A model generated the notes under the pieces. That model was not told the DNA's origin, made no database searches, and was given only the letters and a program-made list of their open reading frames with translations. This document shows, one piece after another, positions 22,201 to 48,340 of a stretch of DNA of 49,646 nt (its first letter is position 1; each line of letters starts with the position of its first letter). The position numbers and the translations under genes were made by a program. The stretch is from NCBI GenBank assembly GCA_016280345.1, contig JAEEGN010000226.1:1-49646 (forward strand), in the 5' to 3' direction. The DNA is from Selenomonadaceae bacterium. Its GTDB lineage: Bacteria > Bacillota > Negativicutes > Selenomonadales > Selenomonadaceae.

Positions 22201-24988
22201 GTCTTATGATACGAAAGACGCCGGGAACAGCAAGACAGCGACGTTCACGTTGCAGGTCGATCCCACGAATTATGATGTTACTGGGTTGCCCGACGCGAAT
22301 GCCACGGCGGGGACATTCACCTGGACGAAAACGGGCTCGATAGCCAAAAAGCTGTTGACAGTCAATCTGCCGGACGCGTCTGTCATCACCAAGACGTATG
22401 ACGGCACTGCGGATGTCGAACAGAACGTCAAATCTCTGGTGACGGTGAGCGGCCTCATTGACAGCGGCACGGCGCTGAATACGTCGGGCATTACTGCGGC
22501 CTATGCGGATAGTGCCCCTGGTGCCAATGACGCGAAGAACGCCGGGGGTAACAAGACGGTCAATTATGCGGGCCTCGTGCTGTCGGGTGCTGACGCGGTG
22601 AACTATACGTTTGATAATACGAACCCGGCGAATGTTGCTTTCGCGACGACGGGAACGGGTACGATTACCAGGAAGGATTTGACGCTGACGTTTGGCGACG
22701 CGACAAAGGTGTACGACGGGAACACGAACGCGCCGACAAGCGGGACAGCCAATCTGAGCGGCAAGGTGGACGGAGATGCCGTAGCCTTGATTGGTTATGA
22801 CGCAACCGGTACGGCTGCCACCGGTTATAAGGGAACGTATGATTCCCAAAACGTGACGGAGGCGACAACTGTCACCTATACGGCCATCAAGCTGACGGGC
22901 GACGACGCGGGCAATTACCGGCTCGTTGACGCTACCAACACGGCGCTTTCCGGTGACGAAACAAATGGCTACCAGACGACTGGCGCGGGTACGATTACGG
23001 CGAAGCAGATTACGGCGTCACTGGATCATGCCACTGATATCAATAAGGCATATGACGGCTCGGCTTCGGATACGGTGCGGGTCACGACGGTTGCTGAAGC
23101 CGCCGGAAAGAATATCAAGTTGGTTGCCGGTACCTTGACGAATGACGAGGTCGCTTCCCTGCAACTTGATATTACACGAACATACAAAGATATTACAACC
23201 GGGCAGGAAGTCAGGGACGCCATGGACGAAAGCGCGACGACGCCACTTCTGGGTGTGGACTATGTGCTGAAGTGGAACAACGCGAACTATGAGTTGGTGC
23301 CGGTGACGCTCAGCGGTACCGGCAAGATCACGAAGCGGAGGCTGTCGACGGCTGGCGTGGCGCCGGATGCGACGAAGGTGTATGACGGTACGACGGATCT
23401 CACCAATGATTCGCTGAAGAACCTTACCGGCGGCTTCATGGACGATGTCTTTACCGCTGACTACGAGAACAAGAAGTCCATTCTCACGGTGGCGGGAACG
23501 TATGACGATGTAAACGCGGCGGACAGCGCGTACAGCGATACGCTAAAAGCTCATACGGTGGATTATACGCTGACGCTGGCGAAGAACAACTCCTATGGCC
23601 AGTCGAATTATCAGTTCGATAATGGCACGGATACATGGGTGAAACAGGGTACTGGTACGATTGAGCGGGCGACGCTGCGGTATGCCACGACGCCGACGGA
23701 GATGACGGCGGGCGGCACAGTACCGGCGATTACCGGGACGTATAAGAGCGGTCTGGCAGCGGCGGACGCGGCAATGCGGGACGATGTCGAGGCGGCGACG
23801 GTGACGTTCACCCCGGTAGGCCTCAACCGCAATACGCCGGGCACCTACCAGGTGGCGGGGCGATACGTGGATGAGAACGGCGTTTCCCACCCGTACTTTA
23901 ATGAGAACTACGCGATTGCCGGAACGAACTTCACGGTGAAGGAACGGCCGGTCACGCCCGACCCCGATCCGGATCCGTACTATCCGGATCCGGAGCCGTA
24001 TAACCCGCCGGTGAATCCGGGCGGGAATACCCCCGGCGGCAATACTCCCGGTGGAAACCCGAATCCGAACCCGAATCCGGGTGGCAATGTGACCCCGGGC
24101 GGGAATGTAACGCCCGGTGGCAATGTAATACCCGGCACGAATCCGGGCGGCGGTACGAACGGCGGTTCTTCCAATGTTACTCCGTCGGGCTCGGGCACGA
24201 ACGGCGGGGGATCCGGGAATACGCCGGGGGGCACCGTCCTGCCGGGCGGTATCGTGATTCCGGGATCAGGCGGCGGCGCGTCGGGTACCGACCGTTCCGC
24301 GGCGGAAAATAACGGCACGGCGACGGTGATGTCAGACCTCACGACGGTCGATACGAAGTTCGTTCCGGATGATAAGGCGTATGCGCGGATTTCTCACGAT
24401 GCGAATACGGAGCGTTTCACCTTTGAATCGAATATCGGCATCCAGTATCAGGATACCGGGGTGAATATTTCGGATGTGGATCGCTCGGCCATCGGACTGG
24501 AGAGCGTCGGCGCGGCGGTGAATCTCGACGGCGTGCAGACGGGCTTCAAGGGCGTGATTGGTGTCTCGACGAAGGGGACCGGCGTGAATGTCGGCGACGA
24601 GGCTCTGCTGGCGGCAGCGACCGCGGCGGAGGCGGATAATCCGTCAGAGACGGCGGCATTGCCCGGGGAGACAGAGGAACCCGCTCCGACGACGGGTATT
24701 GGTCTGGAGCGCTGGGTTGCCCTGATGTCGGACGGCAGCCGGCCGGTAGAGATCGCGGGCGAGACGATGGATCCTTTTGATGAAAACGATACCGACGCGG
24801 CCCAGGCGACGATGACGCAGATGGCGACGCCGACGGGTCTCATCCGCATCAATTCGCAGGATGAGGACGAGGAGGAGCAGGAGCGACGCAACCGCGAGGC
24901 AATCGTAGCTGAGGCTTCCACGGACGACACGGCGCGGATCGGCATTGAAACGGTGGGCCGTGGTGTGAATCTGCAAGCGGTTTCCTGA
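16226..24988 (+). CDS. Giant two-partner-secretion exoprotein (TpsA; filamentous-haemagglutinin-type N-terminal TPS domain, GLUG-like domain, many YDG/MBG-type repeats, Pro/Gly/Asn linker, C-terminal domain)
   Basis: Signal peptide, then the TPS domain (NITATQQNNVIAWQDFSVKSDEHVIF ... NNVYLVNPNGVILGETAKV). GLUG-like segment (VGLFSKV..., GYAGCVAGVA, KAGGIVGEA, NAGIIGRI). Repeated K[VIT]YDG[TN] modules run through the body. The next gene is a TpsB. Confidence 0.9.
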   Translation: MKTRSRKELLARRVSIALMAGAFSIIPHLGYTMPSGGEVLSKITPAGGGAPVDSAAISSNGNTMNITATQQNNVIAWQDFSVKSDEHVIFDGGVTAGENAHNYLNLVAGKGSSFIDGEIKGGNNVYLVNPNGVILGETAKVEVGNLYVSTQDTTALIQNYAGGAQWNGDSPLSSSGVTDVVNLVNPTEGYVKANSVTVNGNNIRFTNTESIQVADGGAVNLNATGYVHIGYEEGRANYANPLKTEAASTKGWKVNNLQATAANDYMLVSNFDDLKAMESTGNYMLEKDITAGAFTPISDFSGNFDGNFKTISGLNISQDGNVGLFSKVNGKTSTSRIENVGFVNPKIESESDGYAGCVAGVAENVLIQNVYHYGRGSSYYIYGGTNKAGGIVGEAKNNTSVYNCFNDGAVDDNAGIIGRITSSNVHVHDVYNVNSSTPFGIVAQTSYEAATGKADVTRTYSVTKLFGTAAAGNLNETACYGNVTTSTDFSGFGNAISDKGGANTTWRALPGRTPVLTAFFQGKVAVGYDYDHAKEGVDSSTYHSGTKLMSDASPSLVYNGGTLALDNVQISGGKAESVTQSTTNVKNAGTYHLFTTKNDETRTGLPLYDIVGGDFIITKRSLVGDSSGLSTQLVKEYDGTSNLISTTTEGYLDIPASGDTGIIPDDTVQVTSGSITGHYYDFASESEYVSYRNNASELQRHEVKNATENLAAVIDLGSGTSITLDTESAKNYEFELAPVDGKNYIYATGAITPRQIELVLKTPTGINKTYDSDSSAKGAYAPAANVRLNLSTADSAVISGDGLTAPTLAFASGAAGTYLAGETAATDANRNAANDSYVNGAGAPYDVQYTGFQVNGFDALAATGNYALVAKEDIRGGRSEYTRVDLDQAAAGTLELWGTGNILRKQLAAENLTWKWTTDANNITKVYDGNYNVAGTTAGGTAVTANTYLTGLAVNLGGTTPEPITGIDAGDITASYASSNSGNSTAQTVTFTVDLHNAGTSLKNYEISGMSGTTVSNNTKTGTITPKMLTAAYQSASKVYDSSTNVVDANGTALTGENIVNLTGFLDADVAKVENVSTAAYTDKNAGTNKSIRYSVALGTTDEGAGFDLSNYSIAGSALSAAVPVTVENKGTITARQLTLTVPQALADTEYNGQATRTVNLALSDGANNAVLHRDQPTATDTLALTANYGDADVSRSGNTINAKNVTFSNIQDAFKASLKAAEQANALTNYIIVDSANSTGKITPVEISASTVHWKDGIGSIDKIYDTTADATLPADSLEFDNAVAQTELALSSSGAYYYTAGDVNQARQSDVGNYNIKLGTLSVVDTTGQNFNNYDVTLTSEQLASSGPALTGSITPRTINVSLSGVPTDGINKTYDTYIAVNDPNLVKGYVTHDTASAAEAAAGTATTGIIGNDAVTVYVDTPTYADANANTTNDNPTGTKTVTFALSLTGTAKNNYLLKTVTMDNPATTATLTAEGNIFKRGVNVVFQDGKSTGINKTYEGYQNTGLGTDANGYDWTDYGSSLALDTTVGATTGNLNGNNLTLNVANATGNYYASNTSTSASGHAGENLDVRYTGYTLGGTAAGNYYIINDTLHGTGTIAKKVISGNTIGVQNGAVGTITTPGITKVYDGTTAADLTNKTLTSTGFVANDTVTLTATAGQYNAATVADANTVTYSGVTLGGASAGDYAFTEYKGTGAITKKDLTLTFGDATKVYDGNKNATTSGAKNLSGIVSGETIDINSFDATGVATTGYKGTYNDKDVLDADTVTYTGIRLTGNTLDNYRLVNGSGTALAGDNETGYTTTGRGTITPAPLTLTLGEAKKVYDGNQVYGLGSYKADGTAVTRTASISGALYGDTVTLSTGTGGLTGAFNDSNAGTEKTITYSGLNLLGADRGNYQLVNVDGSATSVSGNNRTGYTATGTGTITKRPLNGSGNLTITIRSPEKTYDATKAVTHNGSASMDEVKNYVTYVGSTVGTTLNLTSDIAVTNASYDTKDAGNSKTATFTLQVDPTNYDVTGLPDANATAGTFTWTKTGSIAKKLLTVNLPDASVITKTYDGTADVEQNVKSLVTVSGLIDSGTALNTSGITAAYADSAPGANDAKNAGGNKTVNYAGLVLSGADAVNYTFDNTNPANVAFATTGTGTITRKDLTLTFGDATKVYDGNTNAPTSGTANLSGKVDGDAVALIGYDATGTAATGYKGTYDSQNVTEATTVTYTAIKLTGDDAGNYRLVDATNTALSGDETNGYQTTGAGTITAKQITASLDHATDINKAYDGSASDTVRVTTVAEAAGKNIKLVAGTLTNDEVASLQLDITRTYKDITTGQEVRDAMDESATTPLLGVDYVLKWNNANYELVPVTLSGTGKITKRRLSTAGVAPDATKVYDGTTDLTNDSLKNLTGGFMDDVFTADYENKKSILTVAGTYDDVNAADSAYSDTLKAHTVDYTLTLAKNNSYGQSNYQFDNGTDTWVKQGTGTIERATLRYATTPTEMTAGGTVPAITGTYKSGLAAADAAMRDDVEAATVTFTPVGLNRNTPGTYQVAGRYVDENGVSHPYFNENYAIAGTNFTVKERPVTPDPDPDPYYPDPEPYNPPVNPGGNTPGGNTPGGNPNPNPNPGGNVTPGGNVTPGGNVIPGTNPGGGTNGGSSNVTPSGSGTNGGGSGNTPGGTVLPGGIVIPGSGGGASGTDRSAAENNGTATVMSDLTTVDTKFVPDDKAYARISHDANTERFTFESNIGIQYQDTGVNISDVDRSAIGLESVGAAVNLDGVQTGFKGVIGVSTKGTGVNVGDEALLAAATAAEADNPSETAALPGETEEPAPTTGIGLERWVALMSDGSRPVEIAGETMDPFDENDTDAAQATMTQMATPTGLIRINSQDEDEEEQERRNREAIVAEASTDDTARIGIETVGRGVNLQAVS
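23948..24288 (+). repeat. Low-complexity Pro/Gly/Asn-rich coding repeats inside tpsA
   Basis: PDPDPDPYYPDPEPYNPPVNPGGNTPGGNTPGGNPNPNPNPGGNVTPGGNVTPGGNVIPG... is encoded by short imperfect tandem DNA units (ccgggcgggaat..., cccggtggcaat...). Confidence 0.85.
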
Positions 24989-25048
24989 CGACAGGAGCTT
25001 TGAGGAGTGAAAATAACCCTTTTCAAGGGATAAAAGGGAGAACCGAGG

Positions 25049-26704
25049 ATGAGGCTTTTCAGTTATCGAACGCTGGCGCAGGCTATCACGATGACGGTAT
25101 TGGCCGGGACGTTCGCGGGAACGGCTTTGGCGGCGACTTCGCTGCCGGAGCCGGGGGGCGAGGTGAAGGAACAGCTCCCGCAGCCCGGAGCGGAAGTGGA
25201 GAGCAATCTGCCGCCGCCGCCACCGGAGACGACGGAAACGAAGTTCACGGTAAAATCGGTTGACCTCATGGCGCCTGAGCTTAAAGTGAACAAGGAGGCG
25301 CTGACGAAGATTCTGGAGCCGGCGCTGAACCGCGAAGTGACGTTGGCGGAGTTTAACGAAATTATCGACCAGCTTACGGTATATTGCCGGCAGCACGGCT
25401 ATCCGGCGGCGGCGGCGTATCTGCCGGCGCAGGACAGCGTGAACGGCGCGGTGACGATCAATATCATTCCCGGCCGGTACGGGAAGGTCATCATCGAGAA
25501 CCACAGCAAATTGAAGGAAGATATCATCCAGGGGTTCCTGAACGGGCTGAAGCAGGGTTCGATCATTCGCACGAAGGGACTGGAGACGGCGCTCTACGAG
25601 ATCAGTGAGCTTTCCGGCACGAAGGCGGTGGGCGTACTGAGTCCGGGAGAGTCTTTCGGTTCCAGCGATCTGACGGTCCGGGTGGAGGACGGCAAGCTGT
25701 CGAATACGGTGCTCTATACGGAGAACTACGGCAGCCGGTCGTCGGGACGTTACCGTTACGGCCTTCAGGAAACGCTGTACAACGTCGGCGGGACCGGCGG
25801 CAAACTGAACGTGGGCGGACTGATTTCGAACAATCATCTGCACAATTACTATCTGAACTATGAGACGCTGATTGGCCGCAGCGGGGCTACGCTGGGGCTG
25901 GGCGTCAGCCGGATGGACTATGAGCTGGGCGGTGCGGCGCAGGAGTTTGGCGCCAACGGCGTAGCGAATACGCTGAGCCTGTTCGGCTCGACACCGCTCT
26001 ACCACATGACGGACCGCCGGCTGAAGGTGACTTACGGGCTGGATTTCCGGCGGATGAAAGACGATTATAGCAAGTATTCGATTCTCGACCGCAAGAAGCA
26101 TTCGGAGGTCGCCCACGTGGGCATCGAGGGTTCCGAGAAGCATCCGGGCTCGCTGCTGAACTACGACGCGACGCTCTATGTGGGGCGTCATCATAACGAT
26201 TCGTCGTCATATGGCGGCAAGATTCTGGACGATCTCAGCGATACGCAGGGAACGTTCACGAAGCTGGTGGCGGATGTGACCGGCGTACAATCGCTGGGGC
26301 ACCGCGCCGACGTGATGGTGAAGCTCCAGGGGCAGGCGGCAAGTCGTAATCTCGACAGTTCGGAGCAGATTTACCTGGGCGGCGCCAACGGCGTGCGGGC
26401 GTATCCGCAGGGCGAAGGCTCCGGTGACAAAGGCTTCCTGGGAACAGCGGAGTTCCGATTCTATACGAATCTGCCGGGCCTGGTGCTGAGCGCCTACCTC
26501 GATGCCGGCCATGTGGCGGGCCGCGGTGACGGAACGCTCAACGGCGAGACGCTGAAGGGCTGGGGCCTGGGAATCAGCTACTCGAAGCCGAACGACTGGT
26601 TCGCCCGCTTCGACTATGCCCGTCGCATCGGCAGCGATCCGAACATGAGCAGCGATGCCAGGAGCAAGCAGAGAATGTGGTTTATCCTGGGCAAGATTTG
26701 GTAA
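25049..26704 (+). CDS. TpsB outer-membrane transporter (ShlB/FhaC/HecB family, POTRA + Omp85-type barrel)
   Basis: Signal peptide MRLFSYRTLAQAITMTVLAGTFAGTALA. POTRA-like region (LTVYCRQHGYPAAAAYLPAQDSVNGAVTINIIPGRYG). DLTVRVEDGK...YTENYGSRSSGRYRYG, and a C-terminal barrel ending in an aromatic residue (...FILGKIW). Confidence 0.9.
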   Translation: MRLFSYRTLAQAITMTVLAGTFAGTALAATSLPEPGGEVKEQLPQPGAEVESNLPPPPPETTETKFTVKSVDLMAPELKVNKEALTKILEPALNREVTLAEFNEIIDQLTVYCRQHGYPAAAAYLPAQDSVNGAVTINIIPGRYGKVIIENHSKLKEDIIQGFLNGLKQGSIIRTKGLETALYEISELSGTKAVGVLSPGESFGSSDLTVRVEDGKLSNTVLYTENYGSRSSGRYRYGLQETLYNVGGTGGKLNVGGLISNNHLHNYYLNYETLIGRSGATLGLGVSRMDYELGGAAQEFGANGVANTLSLFGSTPLYHMTDRRLKVTYGLDFRRMKDDYSKYSILDRKKHSEVAHVGIEGSEKHPGSLLNYDATLYVGRHHNDSSSYGGKILDDLSDTQGTFTKLVADVTGVQSLGHRADVMVKLQGQAASRNLDSSEQIYLGGANGVRAYPQGEGSGDKGFLGTAEFRFYTNLPGLVLSAYLDAGHVAGRGDGTLNGETLKGWGLGISYSKPNDWFARFDYARRIGSDPNMSSDARSKQRMWFILGKIW

Positions 26705-38229: not shown

Positions 38230-38502
38230 TCATTCATCCGGAAAGAACTCCTCCTCCCAAAGCCCATCAGTTAAGTATTTTTTGAGGAACAGCAGCAAAT
38301 CAACCGGTTTTAGCGAAGTATAACAAGAATAGTTCGTATTATGATAATGGATTTTTAGCATCCGGCCTGCGGCGGAAGAGGCGTACATAGAAATTCCCAC
38401 CGGGGTATCCGCTGACGAGATCATAATGACAAGCGGTACGGGGGCGTTGACGGAATGGGCGCATGTCGAAATCACAATCGACTCATGGAGAGAGGGGAAC
38501 AA
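38230..38502 (-). pseudogene. Possible C-terminal remnant of an alpha/beta-hydrolase-like gene
   Basis: The ORF tail APVPLVIMISSADTPVGISMYASSAAG...HYHNTNY...DLLLFLKKYL resembles the last strand-helix units of alpha/beta hydrolases (PvLii-G-x-D-x-vP ... H ... FL-kk). There is no plausible N-terminal domain, the segment is lower in GC, and it overlaps the next gene's leader. Confidence 0.25.
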
Positions 38503-38507
38503 ACGCC

Positions 38508-39461
38508 ATGAACGACAACTATTTCAATCAGGCGGCTCTCAACAAGATGCGTTCCCCGGAAAAACTCGATACGATGATCCGGATTACCGACCCGGTAAGC
38601 TGGATGGGTATGGCGTCTGTCACACTGCTCTGCTTCGCCATCGTACTTTGGTCGTTTTATGGTTCTTTTACGGAAAAAGCGGAAGGACGTGGCCTGATTC
38701 TGGATTCCGCCGGCGTCGTTAACGTGACGCATTCGGTCTCGGGAAAGATCACCGGAATTTTGGTTCATACGGGGGACAAGGTACATAAAGGACAGCTCAT
38801 CGCCCACATGGATCAGCCGGAACAATCGGCTGACACACGGATGGCGCAGTACGGAACGGAACTGGCAACGAATGACCGTGACGTAATGGGACGTGTTTAC
38901 CAGTACGACGCGAAGCGGCACCAGCAGGCGGCACGAGAGAATATTTACTGTGCGTATGACGGCGTAGTAGACGAGGTGATGGCTGCCGCCGGGGAAATTC
39001 TACAGGCAGGCAGTCCGATCTGTTCGGTGCGTTTAACGCAGAACCGTGATGATTTGACGGGCGTTTTCTATATTCCCGTGGATAAGGGCAAGCGCGTGGA
39101 ACCGGGGATGACAATCCAACTCGCCCCGAACGGTGTTGACGTAACGCAAACGGGCAGTTTGATCGGCGTAGTAAAAAGCGTGTCGCAATATCCGATTTCC
39201 GCCGAAGGCATACGAAAAGGGCTTGGCAACGCGCAACTTGCGCAATATGTGCTGACGCAGGACGGCGGTGCGGCGGTCGAGGTAAAATTCGACCTCGTGA
39301 AAGACGCCAGCTCGGATTCGGGCTACCTCTGGACCTCTGTCGTGGGGAAACATCGGCCGGTCACTGCGGGCAGTTTCTGCACCGGTTCCATCGTAATTGA
39401 GAGGGAACCGCCAATTGAGAAGGCATTCTATAAGATCAGCCAATGGCTGAGGAGCCGATAG
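38508..39461 (+). CDS. HlyD-family adaptor of an NHLP/Nif11-type bacteriocin export system
   Basis: MNDNYFNQAALNKMRSPEKLDTMIRITDPVSWMGMASVTLLCFAIVLW: the SPE-x-LD motif followed by a single TM helix is typical of this adaptor type. A biotinyl-lipoyl-like hairpin region follows (GKITGILVHTGDKVHKGQLIAHMD). ATG 38508 is preceded by GGAGAGAGGGG. Confidence 0.8.
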   Translation: MNDNYFNQAALNKMRSPEKLDTMIRITDPVSWMGMASVTLLCFAIVLWSFYGSFTEKAEGRGLILDSAGVVNVTHSVSGKITGILVHTGDKVHKGQLIAHMDQPEQSADTRMAQYGTELATNDRDVMGRVYQYDAKRHQQAARENIYCAYDGVVDEVMAAAGEILQAGSPICSVRLTQNRDDLTGVFYIPVDKGKRVEPGMTIQLAPNGVDVTQTGSLIGVVKSVSQYPISAEGIRKGLGNAQLAQYVLTQDGGAAVEVKFDLVKDASSDSGYLWTSVVGKHRPVTAGSFCTGSIVIEREPPIEKAFYKISQWLRSR

Positions 39462-39464
39462 CCT

Positions 39465-41684
39465 ATGGAATTCAAAGAAAAACTCCGGCAGTTCCTCTTC
39501 GGCCGGCAACGTGTGAAAACACCGACCGTCCTCCAGATGGAAGCGACGGAATGTGGAGCGGCTTCGCTTTCCATGGTGCTTGCCTATTACGGGAAATGGC
39601 TTCCCCTTGAGGTTTTGCGGCAGGAATGCGGCGTTACCCGTGATGGCGTGAACGCGAAGAACATTCTCCGCGCCGCGCGGCGGTTCGGCTGTGTAGCGAA
39701 AGGCTTTGCCGGTCGCCCCTACGTCCTTCGGGAGAAGGAATTTCCCCTGATTCTTTTTTGGGAGTTCAACCATTTCGTTGTCATGGAAGGAATCGAGGGT
39801 AACACGGTCTTTTTGAACGACCCGGCGTTGGGCCGGCGTAAGGTGACATGGGAGGACTTCCTCACTTCCTACACAGGTATCTATTTGAAAATCGTACCGG
39901 GAGAGGGATTCCGGCCTTCGGGACGGCAGTTCAGCGTCATGCAGGCGATGGTGGAAAAACTCGCCACCGATAAATGGGCAGTACTTTTCCTGGTAATCCT
40001 CGGACTTTGCATGATCATACCCGGGCTTGCCGTTCCGGTGATGAACCAGATCTTCATCGACGATGTCTTCTCGCTGAAGCATCCTGATTGGACCCAGAAA
40101 CTGCTATTCGCGATGGCTTCGGCGGCGGTGCTTGTCGGTGTCATGAGCGCGATGCGGGCTGCGGCACTGACCTATTGGAAGAGGAAACTGACGTTGTCGG
40201 ACTCTTCGTCGTTCTTCTGGCATGTTCTGCGTCTGCCCGTGGCTTTTTTCCAACAGCGGTACGCGGCAGATGTGGCTTCCCGTATCCAGTTCAACGAGGC
40301 GAATGCCGAAGTACTTTCCAACCAAGGAGCTACCGCCGTTCTCGACCTTTTCATCGCGCTGTTCTACCTCGGTCTCCTGATTCAGTACAGCGTTCCGCTG
40401 ACGCTGGTTGGCGTCTCTGTCAGCGTCGTCAACCTCTTGGTGCTTCTCTATATGCGGCGGAATATGACCGACCTCACAATGCGGATTCAGCAGGAAAAAG
40501 GCAAGGAATTTGGCGTCCTGATGGCTGGCATCATGATGATTGAAAGCATCAAAGCGACCGGCAGCGAGGACGAGCTTTTCGCAAAATGGGCCGGTTACTC
40601 CGGGAAAGTAATTGTTGCGAATCAGGAAATGCAGATTTGGTCGCTGAAAGTTCGACTCCTGCCTACGCTTTTGGCAGGTCTTTCGGGGGCGTTGGTCATG
40701 ACAGTAGGCGGCTTTTCCATCATGGAAGGAGCGATGACCGCCGGTGTCTATACGGCGGTGAACAGCCTGATCGAGAAGTTCCATGAACCGATGCAAAAGC
40801 TCTTGACTTTCAGCGATACGATCCGAACGGCAGAAATGCAGATGCAGCGCCTTGACGACGTGCGGCAATATAAAACAGACATCCTGAACTATCCCGATGA
40901 GACACAAACAATCACATTTAAAGGTGACCGCTTATCCGGCGAGATAACCATGAAAGATGTAAACTTCGGCTACAGTCCATTGGAACCGCCGCTCCTGGAG
41001 AATTTCCAACTCCATCTGGAGCCGGGGCGCTGGGCCGCCATCGTGGGCGCGTCGGGCAGTGGAAAATCGACGCTGGCAAAGCTCGTTGCCGGATTTTATG
41101 AGGAATGGTCGGGAGAAATTCTCTTCGATGGTGTGAAACGGCGTGAAATCCCCCGCCCGGTTATCGTCAATTCACTGGCCTCGGTAGATCAGGACGTTTT
41201 CCAAATCTCCGGGACGGTGCGAGAAAACATCTCGCTGTTCGACAGCTCCGTGCCAAAGGATGACATTATGCAGGCAGCGCAGGACGCCTGCATCGAAGAC
41301 GATATCCTGCGGCTCCCTGGCGGCTATGAAGCAGTGGTCTCTGAGGGCGGGCTGAATTTCAGCGGCGGCCAAAGGCAGCGGTTGGAGCTAGCCCGGGCAC
41401 TGGCAGGCAATCCATCCATCCTGATCCTCGACGAAGCGACCAGTGCCATTGACCCGATGACGGAACAGAAGTGCCTCGAAAACCTGCGACGGCGCGGTTG
41501 TACCTGCCTGTTTGTCGCTCATCGTCTGTCAACCATCCGCGACGCGGATGAAATCATCGTCCTGGAAAAAGGTAAGGTGGCAGAACGTGGCACGCATCGC
41601 GAACTGATGCAGAATAACGGCCCTTACTGCAGGTTGATTGAGGAAAACATGAACGAGGAAAAGGGTGACGAATCGCTGGATTAA
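39465..41684 (+). CDS. ABC transporter with N-terminal C39 double-glycine peptidase domain (peptidase/permease/ATPase)
   Basis: C39 catalytic residues in context: VLQMEATECGAASLSMVL, EFNHFVVMEG, FLNDPA. Six-TM ABC exporter domain. Walker A GASGSGKST, FSGGQRQR, ILILDEATSA. Confidence 0.9.
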   Translation: MEFKEKLRQFLFGRQRVKTPTVLQMEATECGAASLSMVLAYYGKWLPLEVLRQECGVTRDGVNAKNILRAARRFGCVAKGFAGRPYVLREKEFPLILFWEFNHFVVMEGIEGNTVFLNDPALGRRKVTWEDFLTSYTGIYLKIVPGEGFRPSGRQFSVMQAMVEKLATDKWAVLFLVILGLCMIIPGLAVPVMNQIFIDDVFSLKHPDWTQKLLFAMASAAVLVGVMSAMRAAALTYWKRKLTLSDSSSFFWHVLRLPVAFFQQRYAADVASRIQFNEANAEVLSNQGATAVLDLFIALFYLGLLIQYSVPLTLVGVSVSVVNLLVLLYMRRNMTDLTMRIQQEKGKEFGVLMAGIMMIESIKATGSEDELFAKWAGYSGKVIVANQEMQIWSLKVRLLPTLLAGLSGALVMTVGGFSIMEGAMTAGVYTAVNSLIEKFHEPMQKLLTFSDTIRTAEMQMQRLDDVRQYKTDILNYPDETQTITFKGDRLSGEITMKDVNFGYSPLEPPLLENFQLHLEPGRWAAIVGASGSGKSTLAKLVAGFYEEWSGEILFDGVKRREIPRPVIVNSLASVDQDVFQISGTVRENISLFDSSVPKDDIMQAAQDACIEDDILRLPGGYEAVVSEGGLNFSGGQRQRLELARALAGNPSILILDEATSAIDPMTEQKCLENLRRRGCTCLFVAHRLSTIRDADEIIVLEKGKVAERGTHRELMQNNGPYCRLIEENMNEEKGDESLD

Positions 41685-41812
41685 CGGCTCTTTACGCCGC
41701 CGGCGCAAAACCAAGATATATTTTTTCATCTCCCGGTTTCAATTCTTGAATCCGGGAGTGGTATTCGAATGCGGTTCCGTTTTTCCGCCACGACAGGAAG
41801 GAAGGACGCGCT

Positions 41813-44566
41813 ATGAAGCTTGCTGCCGGGGAACGGTTCCGGCTACCGGACGATAAAACATATATCAAAATTGTGGCGGGCCAGGCGGAAGCCTATGCGG
41901 TCACGAGGCAAAAAATCTCTTACCGCCAGATATTCTTGAAGGAATTGCCGGTCGGGGAAGCAGCTTTTCCGCCGATGGACGAATTTGATCAGATCGATAT
42001 CCTGGTTTACGCTGTCGAGGATTCCGAGATTGAGCTACAATCGCTTGCTGAAGCGGATCCCGTCATTCTGGCGCCGCTCATGAAGCAGTGGTTCGGGCGG
42101 CTTGTCGCTCTGCCATGGCTCAGCCTTTTAGCTGATCGTGGCGACGATGTGCTGAAGACATGGGCGGACGGTTCTGTCCTGAACAGCCGGGAGACGGACC
42201 TGGCGACGTTGCTGAATGCGTTTGCGGAGAATGAAGGCATTTTCGCTATGTTACTCGGCGTGCGATTCTCGTCGCAGGACAAGCGTCTCTCAACACGTAT
42301 GGAAAGTCGCGCCCGGCAACAAAGCCGTCTTGTGGACGAAACCATCGCAGCATTGCTGGAAGAAAAGGACGCCATAGAAGGCAGTTTTTCCGCGATGGGT
42401 GATGAAGCAGGCACTGGAAGCAAACGGGCCGAAGAGGCCGCGTTTCTCACACGCTGTGTCGCACAGGCTTTGAATATGCCGTTCCGGAATCTGCACATCA
42501 CAACGGATATGGCGAAAAAACATAATTCCCTCGCTTTGCTTCGGCGCTTTGTCCAGAAGTGCGGCATGCAGCTTCGGTCTGTCACCCTCGATCCGGGTTG
42601 GCAGACCGGAGATAGCGGCGTCATGCTTGGCTCCTTCATCGCCGACGACAATGAGAAAGAACTGGCCGCGCTGATACCCGATTCGCCAAAACACTATCGT
42701 CTCGTAACGCAATCGTATCCCGAGGGCATCCCACTCACGGACGAAGTCGCCGCGAGAATCGACCGGGAGGCGTTTCTCTGCTATCCGGGCCTTCCTGCGC
42801 GAAAGCTCTCGCTGGGGGATCTCCTTCGTTTCTTTTTCCGGCAAAGCTGGACGACGGATTGGAAAACAATCGCCATCGCCAGTTTCGTCACGGGATTGAT
42901 TCCGCTGATTACGCCCATTGTCACCGAGACGGTCTTCAAGGACATCATCCCGATCCTTGACCGGAAGGGTCTTGCCACTGTCACGCAAGTCATGATGGTG
43001 GCGGGTTTTACCACGGCAGCGCTAACCACCACGCGATCAGTTGCGTTCCTGCGCCTGTCCTCGGCGTGCGGAAAAACGCTACAGGCCGCTTTGATCATCC
43101 GTCTCTTTTCCCTGCCGGCGAAATTCTTCCGCCGCTTCCAGTCTGGCGACCTTGCCAACCGCTTGATGGGCTTCGAGGCGATCACGCTCCTCCTGTCGGA
43201 GAATGTCTTCGGGGGCATCTTCAACCTGGTGTTTTCCTTCTGGAGTCTCGGGCTGATGCTTTATTACAGCTTGAAGCTTACAGCAACGGCGCTGGGGATA
43301 TGGCTCATTTACCTCATTATCAGCGGCTTCATCATCAGCCGCCTTGTCCGCTCCCAACGGAAAATGACCGAGGCGAAAAACAAGACCGCCGGTATTTTGC
43401 AGCAGATTTTCACAGGACTTCAGAAATTCCGTGTAAAGGGAGCGGAGGAACAGGCCTACCATCTTTGGGGGGAAAAGTTCGCCGAGGAATGGAGATGGAA
43501 TTTCAGCGTTCGCTGGCTCACGAACTATAATACCGTCATCACCGCCGTCCAGCCGATCCTGCTGGCGCTGGCGCTATACTACGTCGGACTGAAGGAGCTT
43601 GCCGAAAACCCGGCAACGGGCGAAGCCGCAACGATACTCTCAGAAACGTTCAGCCCGGCGGAGCCTCTGACAGTCGCTAAATTCATCGCGTTCCAGGCGG
43701 CATACTCCGCATTCAACGTGTCCCTGAACGCCGTCATGCCAATCTTGGAACAGTTTGCCGCCGTCCGGCCGCTGTTCGAGAATCTTCAGCCTATCCTCGA
43801 CACGGAGCCGGAAGCCGCTGAAGAAAAAAAAGAAGCCGGCTTGCTCTCCGGGACAATTGAGGCAAGGCATCTGACCTTTTCCTATGGTGAGGGATTGCCG
43901 GAGGTGCTGCATGACGTGAGCTTCCGCGTAGCGGCGGGAGAGCATCTGGCCATTGTCGGACCGTCCGGCTGCGGCAAATCCACGCTTGTGCGGTTACTCC
44001 TCGGCTTTGAATCGCCGGCCAGTGGTGCCGTCTATTACGACGGGCAGGACCTGGCCGACCTCGACCTTCCCTCCGTGCGCTCTCAGATGGGCGTGGTGTT
44101 GCAAAACGGCCAACTGATGACCGGAGACATCTATCGGAATATCGCCGGGACCAGCGACCTGACGCTGGACGATGCCTGGGCGGCAGCGGAAGCGGCTGGC
44201 GTCGCCAACGACATCCGCGAAATGCCAATGCAGATGCAGACGGTCATCAGCGAAGGCAGCACGAACATTTCCGGTGGTCAGCGGCAGCGCATCCTGATTG
44301 CCAGAGCGCTTGCCATGAAGCCCTCTATCATCATCTGTGACGAGGCGACCAGCGCCCTGGACAACCGTACCCAATCCATCGTAACCGCCAGTCTCGACCA
44401 GCTGAAAGTGACACGTGTTGTCATTGCACACCGTCTCTCGACCATCCGTCACGCTGACCGCATTCTTGTCCTCAATGAAGGCCGTATCGAAGAGATTGGA
44501 ACGTTTGACGAACTGATCGCGAAGGATGGTCTCTTCGCATCGTTTGTCAAACGGCAAGTAGCGTAG
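41813..44566 (+). CDS. Second ABC exporter (permease/ATPase) with a non-peptidase N-terminal extension (cNMP-binding-like)
   Basis: 917 aa. N-terminal roughly 150 aa: RFRLPDDKTYIKIVAGQAEAYAV...IDILVYAVEDSEIE. A central segment aligned to the position of a C39 domain lacks the catalytic Cys context. TM domain, GPSGCGKST, ISGGQRQR, IIICDEATSA. Confidence 0.85.
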   Translation: MKLAAGERFRLPDDKTYIKIVAGQAEAYAVTRQKISYRQIFLKELPVGEAAFPPMDEFDQIDILVYAVEDSEIELQSLAEADPVILAPLMKQWFGRLVALPWLSLLADRGDDVLKTWADGSVLNSRETDLATLLNAFAENEGIFAMLLGVRFSSQDKRLSTRMESRARQQSRLVDETIAALLEEKDAIEGSFSAMGDEAGTGSKRAEEAAFLTRCVAQALNMPFRNLHITTDMAKKHNSLALLRRFVQKCGMQLRSVTLDPGWQTGDSGVMLGSFIADDNEKELAALIPDSPKHYRLVTQSYPEGIPLTDEVAARIDREAFLCYPGLPARKLSLGDLLRFFFRQSWTTDWKTIAIASFVTGLIPLITPIVTETVFKDIIPILDRKGLATVTQVMMVAGFTTAALTTTRSVAFLRLSSACGKTLQAALIIRLFSLPAKFFRRFQSGDLANRLMGFEAITLLLSENVFGGIFNLVFSFWSLGLMLYYSLKLTATALGIWLIYLIISGFIISRLVRSQRKMTEAKNKTAGILQQIFTGLQKFRVKGAEEQAYHLWGEKFAEEWRWNFSVRWLTNYNTVITAVQPILLALALYYVGLKELAENPATGEAATILSETFSPAEPLTVAKFIAFQAAYSAFNVSLNAVMPILEQFAAVRPLFENLQPILDTEPEAAEEKKEAGLLSGTIEARHLTFSYGEGLPEVLHDVSFRVAAGEHLAIVGPSGCGKSTLVRLLLGFESPASGAVYYDGQDLADLDLPSVRSQMGVVLQNGQLMTGDIYRNIAGTSDLTLDDAWAAAEAAGVANDIREMPMQMQTVISEGSTNISGGQRQRILIARALAMKPSIIICDEATSALDNRTQSIVTASLDQLKVTRVVIAHRLSTIRHADRILVLNEGRIEEIGTFDELIAKDGLFASFVKRQVA

Positions 44567-44620: not shown

Positions 44621-45139
44621 ATGTCCCCCGCGACTATTTCCTGTCCGTTGGATTTCGAGTCGATCTACCGGAAGTATCATAAAAGGGTTTACAACTATAT
44701 TTACGGGCAGATTCTGCAACGCGAGGCGGCCGAGGACCTGGCGGCGGATGTGTTCGTCGCGGTGGCGACGAATCTGGGACGCTTCGACCCAACGCGGGGA
44801 TCGTTTTCTATATGGCTTTTTACCATTGCCAGGAATTTGACGCAAAATTATCGCCTGCGAGCCTCAAACCGGCTGGAGGAAACTCGCGAGGAACTGCCCG
44901 AACGTTTTGCCGATCCTCCGAAAGAGCAGGACGAGTCCTTGCGCATTCCCGAGAATGCACGGACAGAGCGTATTTTAACCCAGCTTTCCAACGAGGAACG
45001 GAGTTTTTTGGAGTATCGCTATGTGCTTGATCTTTCCAACGAAGAGATAGGGCGGCTCATTGGGACGTCGGCAGCCACTGTCAGCCAGCGTTATCATCGT
45101 CTGCTGGCGAAGTGCCGGAAAATTGATCGGAACGAATGA
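44621..45139 (+). CDS. Sigma-70 family (ECF-like) RNA polymerase sigma factor
   Basis: Region 2 (IYRKYHKRVYNYIYGQILQREAAEDLAADVFVAV, FSIWLFTIARNLTQNY) and region 4 HTH (LSNEERSFLEYRYVLDLSNEEIGRLIGTSAATVSQRYHRLLAKCR). Confidence 0.85.
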   Translation: MSPATISCPLDFESIYRKYHKRVYNYIYGQILQREAAEDLAADVFVAVATNLGRFDPTRGSFSIWLFTIARNLTQNYRLRASNRLEETREELPERFADPPKEQDESLRIPENARTERILTQLSNEERSFLEYRYVLDLSNEEIGRLIGTSAATVSQRYHRLLAKCRKIDRNE

Positions 45140-45252: not shown

Positions 45253-45546
45253 ATGGCGGACAAGATTGTGGGCAGTGAAAATGATATGACGCGCATCGAG
45301 GAGATGGACATGCTTTTTCGCTCAGCGGATTTCTCCGCTGAAAGCGCCGGTCTTGCCGAGAGGCTTTGGGTAAAAATACGGTCGCGGCTGACAGCACGGA
45401 GACAGGACTTCGTGTCTCCCGCGGAAGAATTCGAGCTTTCCGAGGTCGATCTTTTTGAGGTTGCAGCGGCCGGCTCGCCGGACGAACAGCTCCAGAAATG
45501 TCTGGATCGTAGCCAATACCCGACACTCAGTGGCAGTGGTGTATGA
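45253..45546 (+). CDS. 97-aa acidic hypothetical protein (soluble anti-sigma-like or leader-peptide-like)
   Basis: GAGG lies 8 nt upstream of ATG 45253. It occupies the position usually held by an anti-sigma factor, but has no TM helix and no zinc-finger motif. It contains ...EEFELSEVDLFEVAAAGSPDEQLQKC... Confidence 0.5.
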   Translation: MADKIVGSENDMTRIEEMDMLFRSADFSAESAGLAERLWVKIRSRLTARRQDFVSPAEEFELSEVDLFEVAAAGSPDEQLQKCLDRSQYPTLSGSGV

Positions 45547-45981
45547 GACCTTCGCTATTCCGAAAGACGAGACGCGCATAACTTCATGAATGATGGCCAC
45601 AGCTTTCTGAATGAGTGTTCTCATCAGGAAAAATTGCTATGCGGTTGACGGCTGTGCGATAAAGTGCGGTTCGATGGACTGAACAGAGTTATAATTGGGA
45701 ATACTTGGTCAGATGTAAAACGACGTTCCCGGATATCCAGAAACGTGTGAAGACAGAAAAAAGTGGTATGAATATCTTAATCATCAATATTTGACAAGGT
45801 GGCGAATGGCAGGTGCCATTCCGAGTGCAGCTGGGATAAATGGATACCACTTTAAGGATACGTTGAGCCAGTCCCCACGAAAGAATTGAATCCGTTATGA
45901 AGCGCGGGGATTCCAAGAAAACCATGGCCGGCTGGTTTGCCATAACGATTAACGAAAGCAAAACGACAAAGGAGAGAAAAC

Positions 45982-47598
45982 ATGAGAATCAGCACCTATG
46001 AGATCATCCTGCCGCTGATCGGCCAGGAGGACAAAAAGATTGAGGGGAAAACGCTGCTGGTGAACGGCCTGTATGGCGCGTTGGACGTGGTGGACACGAA
46101 GATAGCTGAAAAGCTCGAAAAGGAAGACTTCGCGGGCATCCCCTTTTCGCTGCGGGAGCGGCTCACGGTGCGCGGCCATATCACGCGAAAGGACGAGGCG
46201 GGCGAGCTGGCAGACGCGCGCCTTATAGGCCGCGTCTGGAACAAGCTGGTGGGCCACGCCGGTACCGGCCCGGTCATCCTGCCTACCTACAACTGCAATT
46301 TCCGTTGCCCGTACTGCTTTGAGCGCCATCGGCTTACCCGCGGACAAGAATGGCTCGGTCATGAGATGAAGCCGGAGATGGTGGAGGCGGTCTTTGCCGC
46401 ACTCCAAAAGCAGAAGGACAAAGGTCATAAGATCGACAACGTCTCGCTCTACGGCGGCGAACCGCTCTTGAAGGAAAACAAGGAGACGGTCAGGAATATC
46501 TGCGAGCATGCAAAGGCGATGGGGCTCGGCCTTTCCGGCATCACCAACGGCTACGACTTAGACTCGTATGTTGATCTTCTGAAAGAATTTGAGTTCTCCC
46601 AGTTGCAAATCACGGTGGACGGCGTGGGCGTGCTGAATGATCGTCGCCGCCTGCATCGGGACGGCGTGCCGACTTACGACAAGATTCTGCAAAACGCGAA
46701 ACTGGCCCTCGACCACGGCGTCGACGTGAACCTCAGGGTGAACACGAACGGTGAGAACATCGGCGGCGTCAAGGCATTGATTGACGATTTGGCAGCCCGG
46801 GGACTTCGTGAAGCCACGCAGGAAGAACGGGATAAAGCGTATCAGGAAGAGCAGGAAGCGAAGAAGGCAGGAAAGCCGAAACCGGAGCGCAAAGGCTTTT
46901 TCAGCTATTATTTCAAAGCAGTGTCGGAGGATGCCGATTCACCGACCAAGGTGACGGAGCGGCAGGTACTGGACGCGTTGCTCGCGGCGGGTATTCCGCC
47001 GTTGGAGGCCATCGGGAAGCAAAGCCAGTATTCGATTCCCATGCAGGGGCTTTCAGCCGCCATGAAGAAAGATGACTATCCGAGCTTTTCCCCGGCTTTC
47101 TGCGGCGCGGAGCAGGGCATGTTGTGCATCGCCCCCGACGGACAGCTCTTTTCCTGTTGGGACCTCGTGGCGAAGGACGAGGACGCCGTGGGCTTCACCG
47201 ACAAAGAGGCGGGCCGGTTCTTCTTCAATTTTACGAAAGCGAAATGGCGTACTCGCACCTCGGACCTGATGAAGCCCTGCCAGACCTGCCCGTACATTTT
47301 CATCTGCCGGGGTGGCTGCGCGCCGGAGGCGTATCGGACGCATGGCAGCTACTTTCGCGAAAACTGCGGCGAGGCAAAGGAGATTTTCGCATATGTCGCC
47401 CCCCGCGTTGTCGGAAAAAAGTGGGAGGCGACAAAGGAGGACGAGCTTTCCATCTCACTGACGGGGCCGTTGGCGAGGTTCACGGAAAAGGAACGTGAGA
47501 CGCTGATGAGAACTACAAGCCAGCAGGAAATGTTCGGTATTATCAAGCAAGCGGGCTTTTTTTTCTCAGAAACAAGCGAGGAAAAGAAGGACGCATAA
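45982..47598 (+). CDS. Radical SAM / SPASM-domain peptide maturase
   Basis: CX3CX2C at PTYNCNFRCPYCFE. SAM-binding GGEPLL. SPASM Cys pattern FCGAEQGMLCIAPDGQLFSC ... CQTCPYIFICRGGCAPEA (CX2CX5CX3C). A roughly 100-aa pre-domain sits where RRE-type leader-binding domains occur. Confidence 0.9.
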   Translation: MRISTYEIILPLIGQEDKKIEGKTLLVNGLYGALDVVDTKIAEKLEKEDFAGIPFSLRERLTVRGHITRKDEAGELADARLIGRVWNKLVGHAGTGPVILPTYNCNFRCPYCFERHRLTRGQEWLGHEMKPEMVEAVFAALQKQKDKGHKIDNVSLYGGEPLLKENKETVRNICEHAKAMGLGLSGITNGYDLDSYVDLLKEFEFSQLQITVDGVGVLNDRRRLHRDGVPTYDKILQNAKLALDHGVDVNLRVNTNGENIGGVKALIDDLAARGLREATQEERDKAYQEEQEAKKAGKPKPERKGFFSYYFKAVSEDADSPTKVTERQVLDALLAAGIPPLEAIGKQSQYSIPMQGLSAAMKKDDYPSFSPAFCGAEQGMLCIAPDGQLFSCWDLVAKDEDAVGFTDKEAGRFFFNFTKAKWRTRTSDLMKPCQTCPYIFICRGGCAPEAYRTHGSYFRENCGEAKEIFAYVAPRVVGKKWEATKEDELSISLTGPLARFTEKERETLMRTTSQQEMFGIIKQAGFFFSETSEEKKDA

Positions 47599-47679
47599 AT
47601 GCCTTTTGCCGTGAGGTCTTATGTATGGCAGTCCAGTCCCGAGGGCTGCCCTAAACACACGATGGACAACTGCTCATAA
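47599..47679 (+). pseudogene. 26-codon ORF resembling a truncated core peptide (MPFAVRSYVWQSSPEGCPKHTMDNCS)
   Basis: It starts on the nucleotide after the rSAM stop and in the same frame. SYVWQSSPEGCPKH resembles VYWSNCPGEGTCGHH of the intact precursor. No leader is present. Confidence 0.35.
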
Positions 47680-47700
47680 TAAATAGGGGATGTTTTATTT

Positions 47701-47823
47701 TTGGCAGACAAACTCAAAGGAAAAAACATCTCGAAGGAACAGCTCGAGAAAGCGATCAAGTGCAAAACCGCCGACAAACTGTTGCGGCGGCGAAATCCGA
47801 GGTTTTTCGATCTGACGAAGTAA
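47701..47823 (+). pseudogene. Nif11-like N-terminal leader half, separated from the downstream precursor ORF by an in-frame TAA
   Basis: A TTG-initiated frame reads LADKLKGKNISKEQLEKAIKCKTADKLLRRRNPRFFDLTK*, in the same frame as ATG 47839. An alternative frame over 47784-47805 reads VAAAKSEVF, suggesting compensating frameshifts. Confidence 0.4.
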
Positions 47824-47838
47824 GAAGCTGAGGCGTGC

Positions 47839-47985
47839 ATGGCGGAGCTGGCAGACTTCAAGCTGGATGATGAGATGCTGAATAAAGCGGCCGGGGGCGT
47901 TTACTGGTCAAATTGCCCGGGTGAGGGAACCTGCGGCCACCACGTCTGCGGAATTGTAGGCTGGGAGAACTTCAAGGGATGCTGA
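47839..47985 (+). CDS. 48-aa RiPP precursor peptide with a double-glycine leader and a 4-Cys core
   Basis: MAELADFKLDDEMLNKAAGG | VYWSNCPGEGTCGHHVCGIVGWENFKGC. SD TGAGG sits 5 nt upstream. It lies 240 nt downstream of the rSAM/SPASM gene and in a locus with a C39-peptidase exporter. It is below the 60-aa cutoff of the ORF track. Confidence 0.7.
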   Translation: MAELADFKLDDEMLNKAAGGVYWSNCPGEGTCGHHVCGIVGWENFKGC

Positions 47986-48127
47986 TCCGTAGAAAGGTTT
48001 TATCTATAGCAACAAGTTACAAGGAAGCGTTCACGAAAGAACAACGCAAAGATCGCCAATGAGTTTCCGGCATTGGCAAAGTCTGATATAAAAGCCGCCT
48101 GTTGGTTTATCCCATAGCGGCTATTAT

Positions 48128-48301
48128 ATGCAGAAATTCCTGAAGCGAATATCTTGGGTGTACATGGCTGAGCTCAATGGCTTCGAACTGGATGACGAAG
48201 TGATTTAGGCTTTGACGGACGGCATGAAGACCCGATATATTGTGGATGGTTGCTCCTTCAAGTGCGGTACATTAGAGAACTTGTTGACGAATCATGGCTG
48301 A
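48128..48301 (+). pseudogene. Second precursor paralogue interrupted by an in-frame TAG
   Basis: MQKFLKRISWVYMAELNGFELDDEVI*ALTDGMKTRYIVDGCSFKCGTLENLLTNHG*. MAELNGFELDDEV parallels MAELADFKLDDEM. The stop is at 48206-48208, and the GG motif is replaced by DG. Confidence 0.45.
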
Positions 48302-48311
48302 ACGGAAAAAT

Positions 48312-48340
48312 AAGGTAAGATTATCTTACCTTATTTTTCT
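48312..48340 (+). terminator. Intrinsic terminator closing the precursor region
   Basis: AAGGTAAGA-tta-TCTTACCTT followed by ATTTTTCT. Confidence 0.8.

Follow-up and report, generated by a model that had tools for sequence, protein, structure and literature searches.

Among described peptide systems, the nearest kind to the gene treated here are the precursors of Nif11-derived peptides (N11P; TIGR03798 / PF07862; Haft, Basu & Mitchell 2010, PMC2887384), e.g., the prochlorosin ProcA peptides. The N11P family forms large paralogous families (PMC2887384), and the NHLP/Nif11 export system was defined together with it (Haft et al., PMC2887384). A second comparison is offered by the LahA1-9 / LahT system of Lachnospiraceae bacterium C6A11 (Bobeica et al. 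2019, PMC6363468), which has lanthipeptide substrates and a protease that recognises only the last ~13 residues of the leader (PMC6363468), and a third by the ranthipeptide/sactipeptide-type maturases (PapB, CefB and TIGR04064, the 'nif11-like peptide radical SAM maturase'), which have a radical SAM core and a SPASM domain. The window (the whole stretch of 49,646 nucleotides that was analysed) holds an export cluster and a maturase gene of these general types, followed by an interrupted gene that we call psiA:

38463-44566, + strand, NHLP/Nif11-type export cluster, intact, three genes
38463-39461, + strand, HlyD-like adaptor, TIGR03794 at 241 bits (cutoff 156)
39465-41684, + strand, C39 peptidase ABC exporter, TIGR03796 at 963 bits (cutoff 853)
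41813-44566, + strand, second ABC subunit, TIGR03797 at 744 bits (cutoff 709)
45982-47598, + strand, radical SAM/SPASM peptide maturase, 538 aa, intact, matching Pfam Radical_SAM and SPASM TIGR04085
47701-47985, + strand, psiA, very probably the whole relic of a 94-codon Nif11-leader RiPP precursor gene, delimited by tblastn and by protein and DNA alignments

Like N11P precursors, the psiA clade has a long, helical leader that closes with an ELxxxxLxxxAGG double-glycine site, hypervariable Cys-rich cores behind that conserved leader and many paralogues per genome, with a TIGR03794/03796/03797 export cluster adjacent; psiA is likewise associated with both an export cluster and a maturase gene. 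Unlike N11P precursors, psiA itself is in all probability a pseudogene, and its clade comes from rumen Negativicutes and Spirochaetia, adjoins a radical SAM/SPASM enzyme rather than LanM or a cyclodehydratase, and scores around the TIGR03798 cutoff (31-37 vs. 32.3 bits). With LahA1-9 / LahT it shares several Nif11-type precursors of conserved leader and diverse core and a single C39-peptidase ABC exporter, the Lah host also being an anaerobic gut Firmicute; it differs from that lanthipeptide system in that the neighbouring enzyme is a radical SAM/SPASM protein, and in that the psiA family is known from sequence alone.

The window maturase resembles the ranthipeptide/sactipeptide-type enzymes in its radical SAM core and SPASM domain and in a roughly 95-aa N-terminal extension, and its putative substrates, Cys-rich cores behind a GG leader, resemble those of radical SAM/SPASM-modified RiPPs. 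Unlike PapB, CefB and the TIGR04064 enzymes, it falls by model scores in none of the named subfamilies, because all NCBIfam maturase models score far under their cutoffs (CefB 128 bits against 600, TIGR04064 60 bits against 519), leaving only partial CefB-like matches. The enzyme is full length with its Cys motifs present by eye, and is 82-85% identical, at equal length, to orthologues that adjoin intact precursors on four other contigs (L005, L018, L024 and L025); exact-sequence look-up of the window protein found nothing on record. It is presumed to modify the local precursors.

An interrupted precursor gene

The earlier note had proposed that an in-frame TAA and compensating frameshifts separate a Nif11-like leader from a short downstream ORF, and DNA alignment with an intact orthologue, protein homology and TIGR03798 all bear this out. 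Read directly, the 46 codons of 47701-47838 are in the same frame as the ATG at 47839, as claimed, and translate to LADKLKGKNISKEQLEKAIKCKTADKLLRRRNPRFFDLTK-TAA(47821-23)-EAEAC-MAEL..., with VAAAKSEVF present in a shifted frame, again as described. The repaired product (94 aa) follows frame 0 to ...KTADKL, the shifted frame through (V/I)AAAKSEVF, and frame 0 once more, with the stop read as Glu. As a query this product recovered 39 homologous proteins, 16 of them uninterrupted proteins of 91-94 aa, from rumen Selenomonadales, Acidaminococcaceae and Spirochaetia, that aligned end to end; the top match was P0001 (intact, 94 aa), at 81% identity, 100% coverage and E=2.5e-45. In the other direction, tblastn of P0001 against the window matched 47701-47982 in one frame through the stop, at 73% identity and E=3.5e-47. 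Judged by these alignments, the resemblance of psiA to intact precursors is far greater than chance would give.

Some homologues already carry names of this kind: P0010 is a nif11-like leader peptide for JGI, and P0030 a Nif11-like leader peptide family RiPP precursor for NCBI; repaired psiA is homologous over its full length to proteins so named. The earlier note had also asked for a TIGR03798 test of the repaired translation, and here the outcome was split: there was a match at E about 1e-4, but its 22.4-23.3 bits did not reach the curated cutoff of 32.3 bits, around which intact relatives lie at 31.1-37.1 bits (P0001 31.8, P0003 31.6, P0009 33.7, P0030 37.1). The same model gave no match at E<=10 for the unrepaired in-frame translation (stop as X), and none for the 48-aa ORF alone. 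By these scores psiA is a descendant of the N11P family (TIGR03798), not a scoring member of it. The claim of a Nif11-like leader from 47701 onward nevertheless holds, full-length homology, the orthologue DNA alignment and the TIGR03798 scan all agreeing. The double-glycine cleavage motif (ELxxxxLxxxAGG) is present as FKLDDEMLNKAAGG, with GG at 47893-98, and was compared with motif 2 of Nif11-derived peptides, ELSDEELEAVAGG (PMC2887384). Behind it stands a core of the type that we call A-type, VCWxNCPxExxCxHHVCGTVGWENFKGC.

In relatives, the intact A-type gene encodes a leader of roughly 66 aa ending ...ELDDEMLxKAAGG and then a conserved 28-aa Cys-rich core. The ORF is uninterrupted in 12 of the 13 A-type genes from species-representative genomes and in all 16 metagenomic ones, the genomes including Selenomonadaceae, Acidaminococcaceae (Succiniclasticum ruminis DSM 9236) and rumen Spirochaetia. 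Leader column 21 is an invariant Cys (xCK[TN]ADEL) across the whole clade, EAEAY is likewise invariant across many cores, and in the clade alignment conservation of the leader's N-terminal half equals that of the protease site. Because this half is so highly conserved in front of different cores, it is plausible that the N-terminal leader part lost from psiA is what the maturase binds. Scanning a genome collection with the motifs EAEAY.. and ..CK[TN]A[DE]EL gave at least 6 precursor loci in Succiniclasticum ruminis and 8 in one Selenomonadaceae MAG; the scan missed the window's own genome because both motifs are mutated in the window, whose host would, going by relatives, be a rumen Selenomonadaceae-like Negativicute. 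Literature searches on the core motif, and on Nif11 together with rumen or Selenomonas, returned no characterised member. One relative has an unusual cargo for a RiPP-type leader: the 234-aa protein of L024 8872-9576 fuses a Nif11-type leader ending AAGG to a Hint domain (PF01079, 31.9 bits, cutoff 29.7).

The lesions of psiA were read against the P0001 gene on ENA contigs L003/L004, an intact orthologue with 85.7% DNA identity, and delimit the following features:

47701-47703, + strand, start codon, ATG in the intact orthologue and now TTG, from the DNA alignment
47782-47808, + strand, out-of-frame stretch bounded by a 1-nt deletion and a 1-nt insertion, from the DNA alignment
47821-47823, + strand, nonsense codon, TAA for a conserved Glu/Asp codon (GAG in the orthologue)
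47836-47838, + strand, Y46C, TGC (Cys) for TAC, where Tyr46 of the EAEAY motif is invariant in all others
47839-47985, + strand, residual 48-codon ORF, MAELADFKLDDEMLNKAAGGVYWSNCPGEGTCGHHVCGIVGWENFKGC, open, from internal Met47

Upstream of the altered start, the ribosome-binding site has become AGGGGA (47685-47690) with a 10-nt spacer, where the orthologue has AAGGAGG with a 6-nt spacer. The DNA alignment confirmed one -1 and one +1 change 20-25 nt apart: the deletion, at 47782-83, turns ancestral CTG ATC GCG into CTG TT GCG, and the insertion, within 47802-47808, turns ancestral GAGG GATAC into GAGG TTTTTC, so that 47782-47808 now reads LRRRNPRFF in frame in place of ancestral IAAAK(S/T)EG(Y/F). 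These changes had been placed at a GCG repeat and a T5 run, which is right in so far as they adjoin or fall in them, but neither is a change of repeat length: the -1 lies just 5' of the (GCG)3 run, which is equally long in window and orthologue. Beyond Y46C, the first core Cys is gone by C68Y (TGC to TAC at 47902-04; Cys68 is invariant in all others), and E54K is found at 47860-62. Among 29 aligned A-type sequences, psiA departs from the consensus at four columns of 90% or higher conservation (E26K, Y46C, E54K and C68Y); intact homologues deviate at 0-5, so this count alone is no proof of decay. A single ORF for leader and core with a functional start is what psiA lacks, through the -1, the +1, the TAA, ATG>TTG and the degraded ribosome-binding site together.

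Probable decay of psiA

We consider it very probable that a 94-codon Nif11-leader RiPP precursor gene was recently inactivated at 47701-47985, through real, inherited mutations, and that the full-length precursor is no longer made. This reading, one of three that had been offered for the interruption, is supported by the orthologue alignment, by the sharing of the lesions among strains and by the uninterrupted homologues. The history would begin with an intact ancestral gene beside the same radical SAM/SPASM maturase, encoding a helical Nif11-type leader and a Cys-rich core; six changes would then have accumulated in the window lineage, namely the weakened start, the deletion, the compensating insertion, GAG>TAA, Y46C and C68Y, with the -1/+1 pair garbling about 9 residues of the leader helix. 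Two further precursor copies of the locus, psiB and psiC, are dead too, as if individual precursor copies were born and died while maturase and exporter persisted.

Between psiA and the intact orthologue, dN/dS came to 0.18 (N-terminal part), 0.34 (C-terminal part) and 0.48 (core), all from small counts (12-25 differences). Because most of the divergence still looks selected by these low ratios, we infer that inactivation was recent; with 12-25 differences only, the N- vs. C-terminal comparison shows neither relaxed constraint nor special protection of the short ORF. The -1/+1 pair may be a compensated frameshift that predates the nonsense mutation (by a rough estimate, a pair of random indels has about a one-in-ten chance of restoring the frame over so short a distance, about 25 nt), and the gene may still have been under selection after the first indel, in which case inactivation would have come mainly from the TAA and the weak start. 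As a separate observation, dS against L003 235-519 was 0.69 in the leader half (13 changes) vs. 0.19 in the C-terminal half (5 changes), again small counts; the contrast between the psiA halves may reflect gene conversion among paralogues or nucleotide-level constraint.

Loss of the A-type peptide recurs, because two other relics are independent of psiA. L007 1376-1657 (Schwartzia sp. MAG RGIG3544) has K32stop and a degenerate core end, HHFCGTVGWQDFREC; P0039, on L083 at 3094-3294, is N-terminally truncated, has lost its stop and begins 14 nt after an unrelated gene. In the window lineage itself the maturase and exporter are most likely kept for precursor paralogues elsewhere in the genome, because relatives carry many scattered precursor copies.

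In annotation, both 47701-47985 and 47994-48280 should be entered as Nif11-type RiPP precursor pseudogenes, with no precursor called at the 48-codon ORF, and the local precursors give no ground for counting the locus as a producing cluster. A decayed copy of a known kind of gene, the Nif11-derived RiPP precursor, is ordinary and opens no long-standing question. What psiA offers is a clean, datable case of birth-and-death turnover in a large, so far uncharacterised precursor family, one in which, among rumen Negativicutes, leaders of Nif11 type are found together with radical SAM enzymes.

The alternative that survives best, and which we hold to be unlikely, is that the 48-codon ORF is a live truncated precursor: translated either from its own GAGG/ATG or by re-initiation after a 40-codon upstream ORF (whose 40-aa product had nothing on record by exact-sequence look-up), cut at its leader end and exported by the adjacent C39 ABC exporter, with radical SAM modification absent or partial, so that an unmodified bacteriocin-like or signalling peptide would result. 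The ORF is open, and it was predicted as a gene by gene callers on two related contigs (L001 and L002). It consists of a 20-aa leader end, MAELADFKLDDEMLNKAAGG (GG 47893-98), and the 28-aa core, and, in line with the suggestion that it keeps the protease site, L -12, L -7, A -4 and GG are intact. The C39 domain LahT150 needs just the last 13 residues of a Nif11-type leader (PMC6363468); the exporter genes are intact and over curated cutoffs. Its product, if translated, could thus be predicted to be cleavable and exportable.

Calling the ORF an intact short precursor, as the earlier note did, is nonetheless an overstatement: it is open, but E54K and C68Y change two of its otherwise conserved or invariant columns, the second removing the invariant first core Cys. 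Its ATG does have a weak GAGG ribosome-binding site 5 nt upstream, but GAGG and Met are inherited coding sequence, found also in the intact orthologues, and did not evolve for a short ORF. The three strains show zero SNPs in the 48 codons, an absence of polymorphism that is weightless given that the certainly dead psiB has zero SNPs as well, and the dead N-terminal part has, at 0.18, a dN/dS no higher than the C-terminal part has (0.34; core 0.48). By itself the ORF has no family match: an NCBIfam and Pfam scan at E<=10 was empty except for ADH_N_2 (E=0.17), which we take as noise, and the ORF does not combine a match to the bacteriocin double-glycine leader model TIGR01847 with conservation as a short gene. 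Protein homologue search and JGI metagenome scans found no diverged lineage with a conserved short form, P0039, the sole other short form, being a relic.

By comparison with intact genes, then, the 48-codon ORF is a leftover without the conserved N-terminal leader and one core Cys, from which some residual product may be made. We think it quite improbable that it is a naturally leader-truncated derivative that evades the radical SAM maturase yet is still cleaved and exported by the adjacent C39 ABC exporter; if true, this would be a RiPP precursor caught becoming an unmodified double-glycine peptide, and export of the truncated ORF, only if proved, would inform how RiPPs lose modifications. 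Related to this, the repeated inactivation of the A-type peptide (in the window lineage, L007 and P0039), with exporter and maturase persisting, may point to selection against producing it.

A sequencing or assembly error at a repeat or homopolymer, with the true genome encoding an intact 94-aa precursor, has almost no probability left. The indels do adjoin the (GCG)3 repeat or fall in the T5 run, but the same -1, +1 and TAA occur in two other metagenome assemblies that differ from the window by SNPs: L001 (GCA_016648415.1), 99.83% identical over 1784 nt, and L002 (GCA_016295205.1), 99.70% identical over 658 nt, both of which have the same psiA lesions and the exact 48-aa ORF. Five positions (47697, 47792, 47803, 48450 and 49342) set them apart from the window, and they thus represent independent strains. 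Three of the five polymorphisms are in the ~120-nt dead leader part, and both SNPs of L002 (47792, 47803) are inside the out-of-frame stretch; there L002 has ATTTT for the TTTTT of the window, with no change of length, so a homopolymer miscall is ruled out. Length errors would not explain TTG, TAA, Y46C and C68Y, which are substitutions; the (GCG)3 run is neither longer nor shorter than in the intact orthologue; and the long ORFs of the window, among them those of 2920, 1434 and 1121 aa, are unbroken, as are the scanned his operon genes, the ABC exporters and the maturase. The error reading is thus refuted by lesions shared between two independent assemblies and by intact long ORFs. Two JGI metagenome scans, one with a degenerate pattern requiring the TAA allele and one with a pattern common to the window and its closest intact orthologue, gave no match, so the lesions are not datable by further strains or closer intact alleles.

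Programmed recoding, in which a -1 shift, a +1 shift and TAA read-through would jointly yield the full-length precursor, is refuted in practice and can be given hardly any weight: net frame is restored and ancestral residues (AAAKSE) are encoded in the shifted frame, but a span of about 45 nt would have to hold three independent recoding events, behind a start codon that is itself weak (TTG), inspection by eye shows no slippery X XXY YYZ heptamer at the -1 site, invariant residues are mutated as well, and the same peptide is encoded in one uninterrupted ORF in 27 of 29 close A-type homologues from several phyla, the comparison with relatives that had been proposed as a check. A programmed frameshift or read-through conserved among diverged orthologues was not found, the only other interrupted copy (L007) having a different lesion; and because the frameshift is confined to one near-clonal lineage (at least 99.7% identical), we regard it as mutation, not a decoding signal.

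Neighbouring relics and flanking genes

Decay of psiA, the favoured reading, has company in the window, where two more precursor fragments and a hairpin were located:

47994-48280, + strand, psiB, second precursor relic with a B-type core (xxCYxVDGCxFKCGTL), from tblastn pieces in three frames
45629-45682, + strand, psiC, core-only B-type fragment, KNCYAVDGCAIKCGSMD and stop, upstream of the maturase gene
48304-48340, + strand, likely terminator hairpin with a perfect 17-bp stem and then a U-rich tract, -22.8 kcal/mol, z=-6.1

Against the intact B-type genes of L005 and L024, DNA alignment shows psiB without its start, ribosome-binding site and stop, with several indels and an in-frame TAG (48207-09), and with GG replaced by DG and a Cys by Arg. 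On this tally psiB is much older or more decayed than psiA. For psiC, tblastn queries with P0030, P0025 and the B-type precursor of L005 gave E-values from 1e-5 to 3e-4. The C-terminus of orf97, which contains EQLQK, was considered as an N-terminal remnant of psiC and rejected, as its tail aligns with the tails of orf97 homologues.

Gene order ties these fragments to intact loci. In the window the maturase gene, which ends 103 nt before psiA, is followed by psiA and psiB; in L005 a radical SAM/SPASM maturase (82% identical) precedes an A-type and then a B-type precursor, after which come a B12-binding radical SAM enzyme and further genes, and the order of maturase and then precursor is found in both L005 and L018. 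L024 runs ABC1, ABC2, ECF sigma, small ORF, ~4.5 kb of extra genes, maturase and B-type precursor; the ~4.5 kb, absent from the window near psiC, holds an FAD oxidoreductase, a metallophosphoesterase, a PTP-like phytase and three precursors.

The hairpin at 48304-48340 is, from its predicted fold, likely the operon terminator after psiB, and with an A-tract and a U-tract on its flanks it is possibly bidirectional. A promoter scan gave only a weak 9/12 match at 47652-47680, which we do not count as evidence. Downstream of the hairpin, the gene from about 48519 looks by eye like a dicarboxylate/amino acid symporter.

Between the export cluster and psiC, a small ORF (45253-45546, + strand) follows the ECF sigma gene (44621-45139), where an anti-sigma factor would usually lie, and seven syntenic loci conserve it. 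Its conserved motifs are an N-terminal MDELFRRxDFAAExPGLxERL and 'ELSExELxxLAAAG', the second followed by a short variable tail and resembling a double-glycine-type leader end as in substrates of the adjacent C39 exporter; no significant Pfam or NCBIfam match was found (best Pfam E=0.26). These sequence features hint at a sigma-factor regulator that would be cleaved or exported by the bacteriocin transporter. Further upstream, 16226-26704 holds a two-partner secretion pair: the 2920-aa exoprotein contains six YDG-domain repeats and is followed by a ShlB/FhaC-type POTRA transporter (25049-26704). Such a pair fits a diderm (Negativicutes) host.
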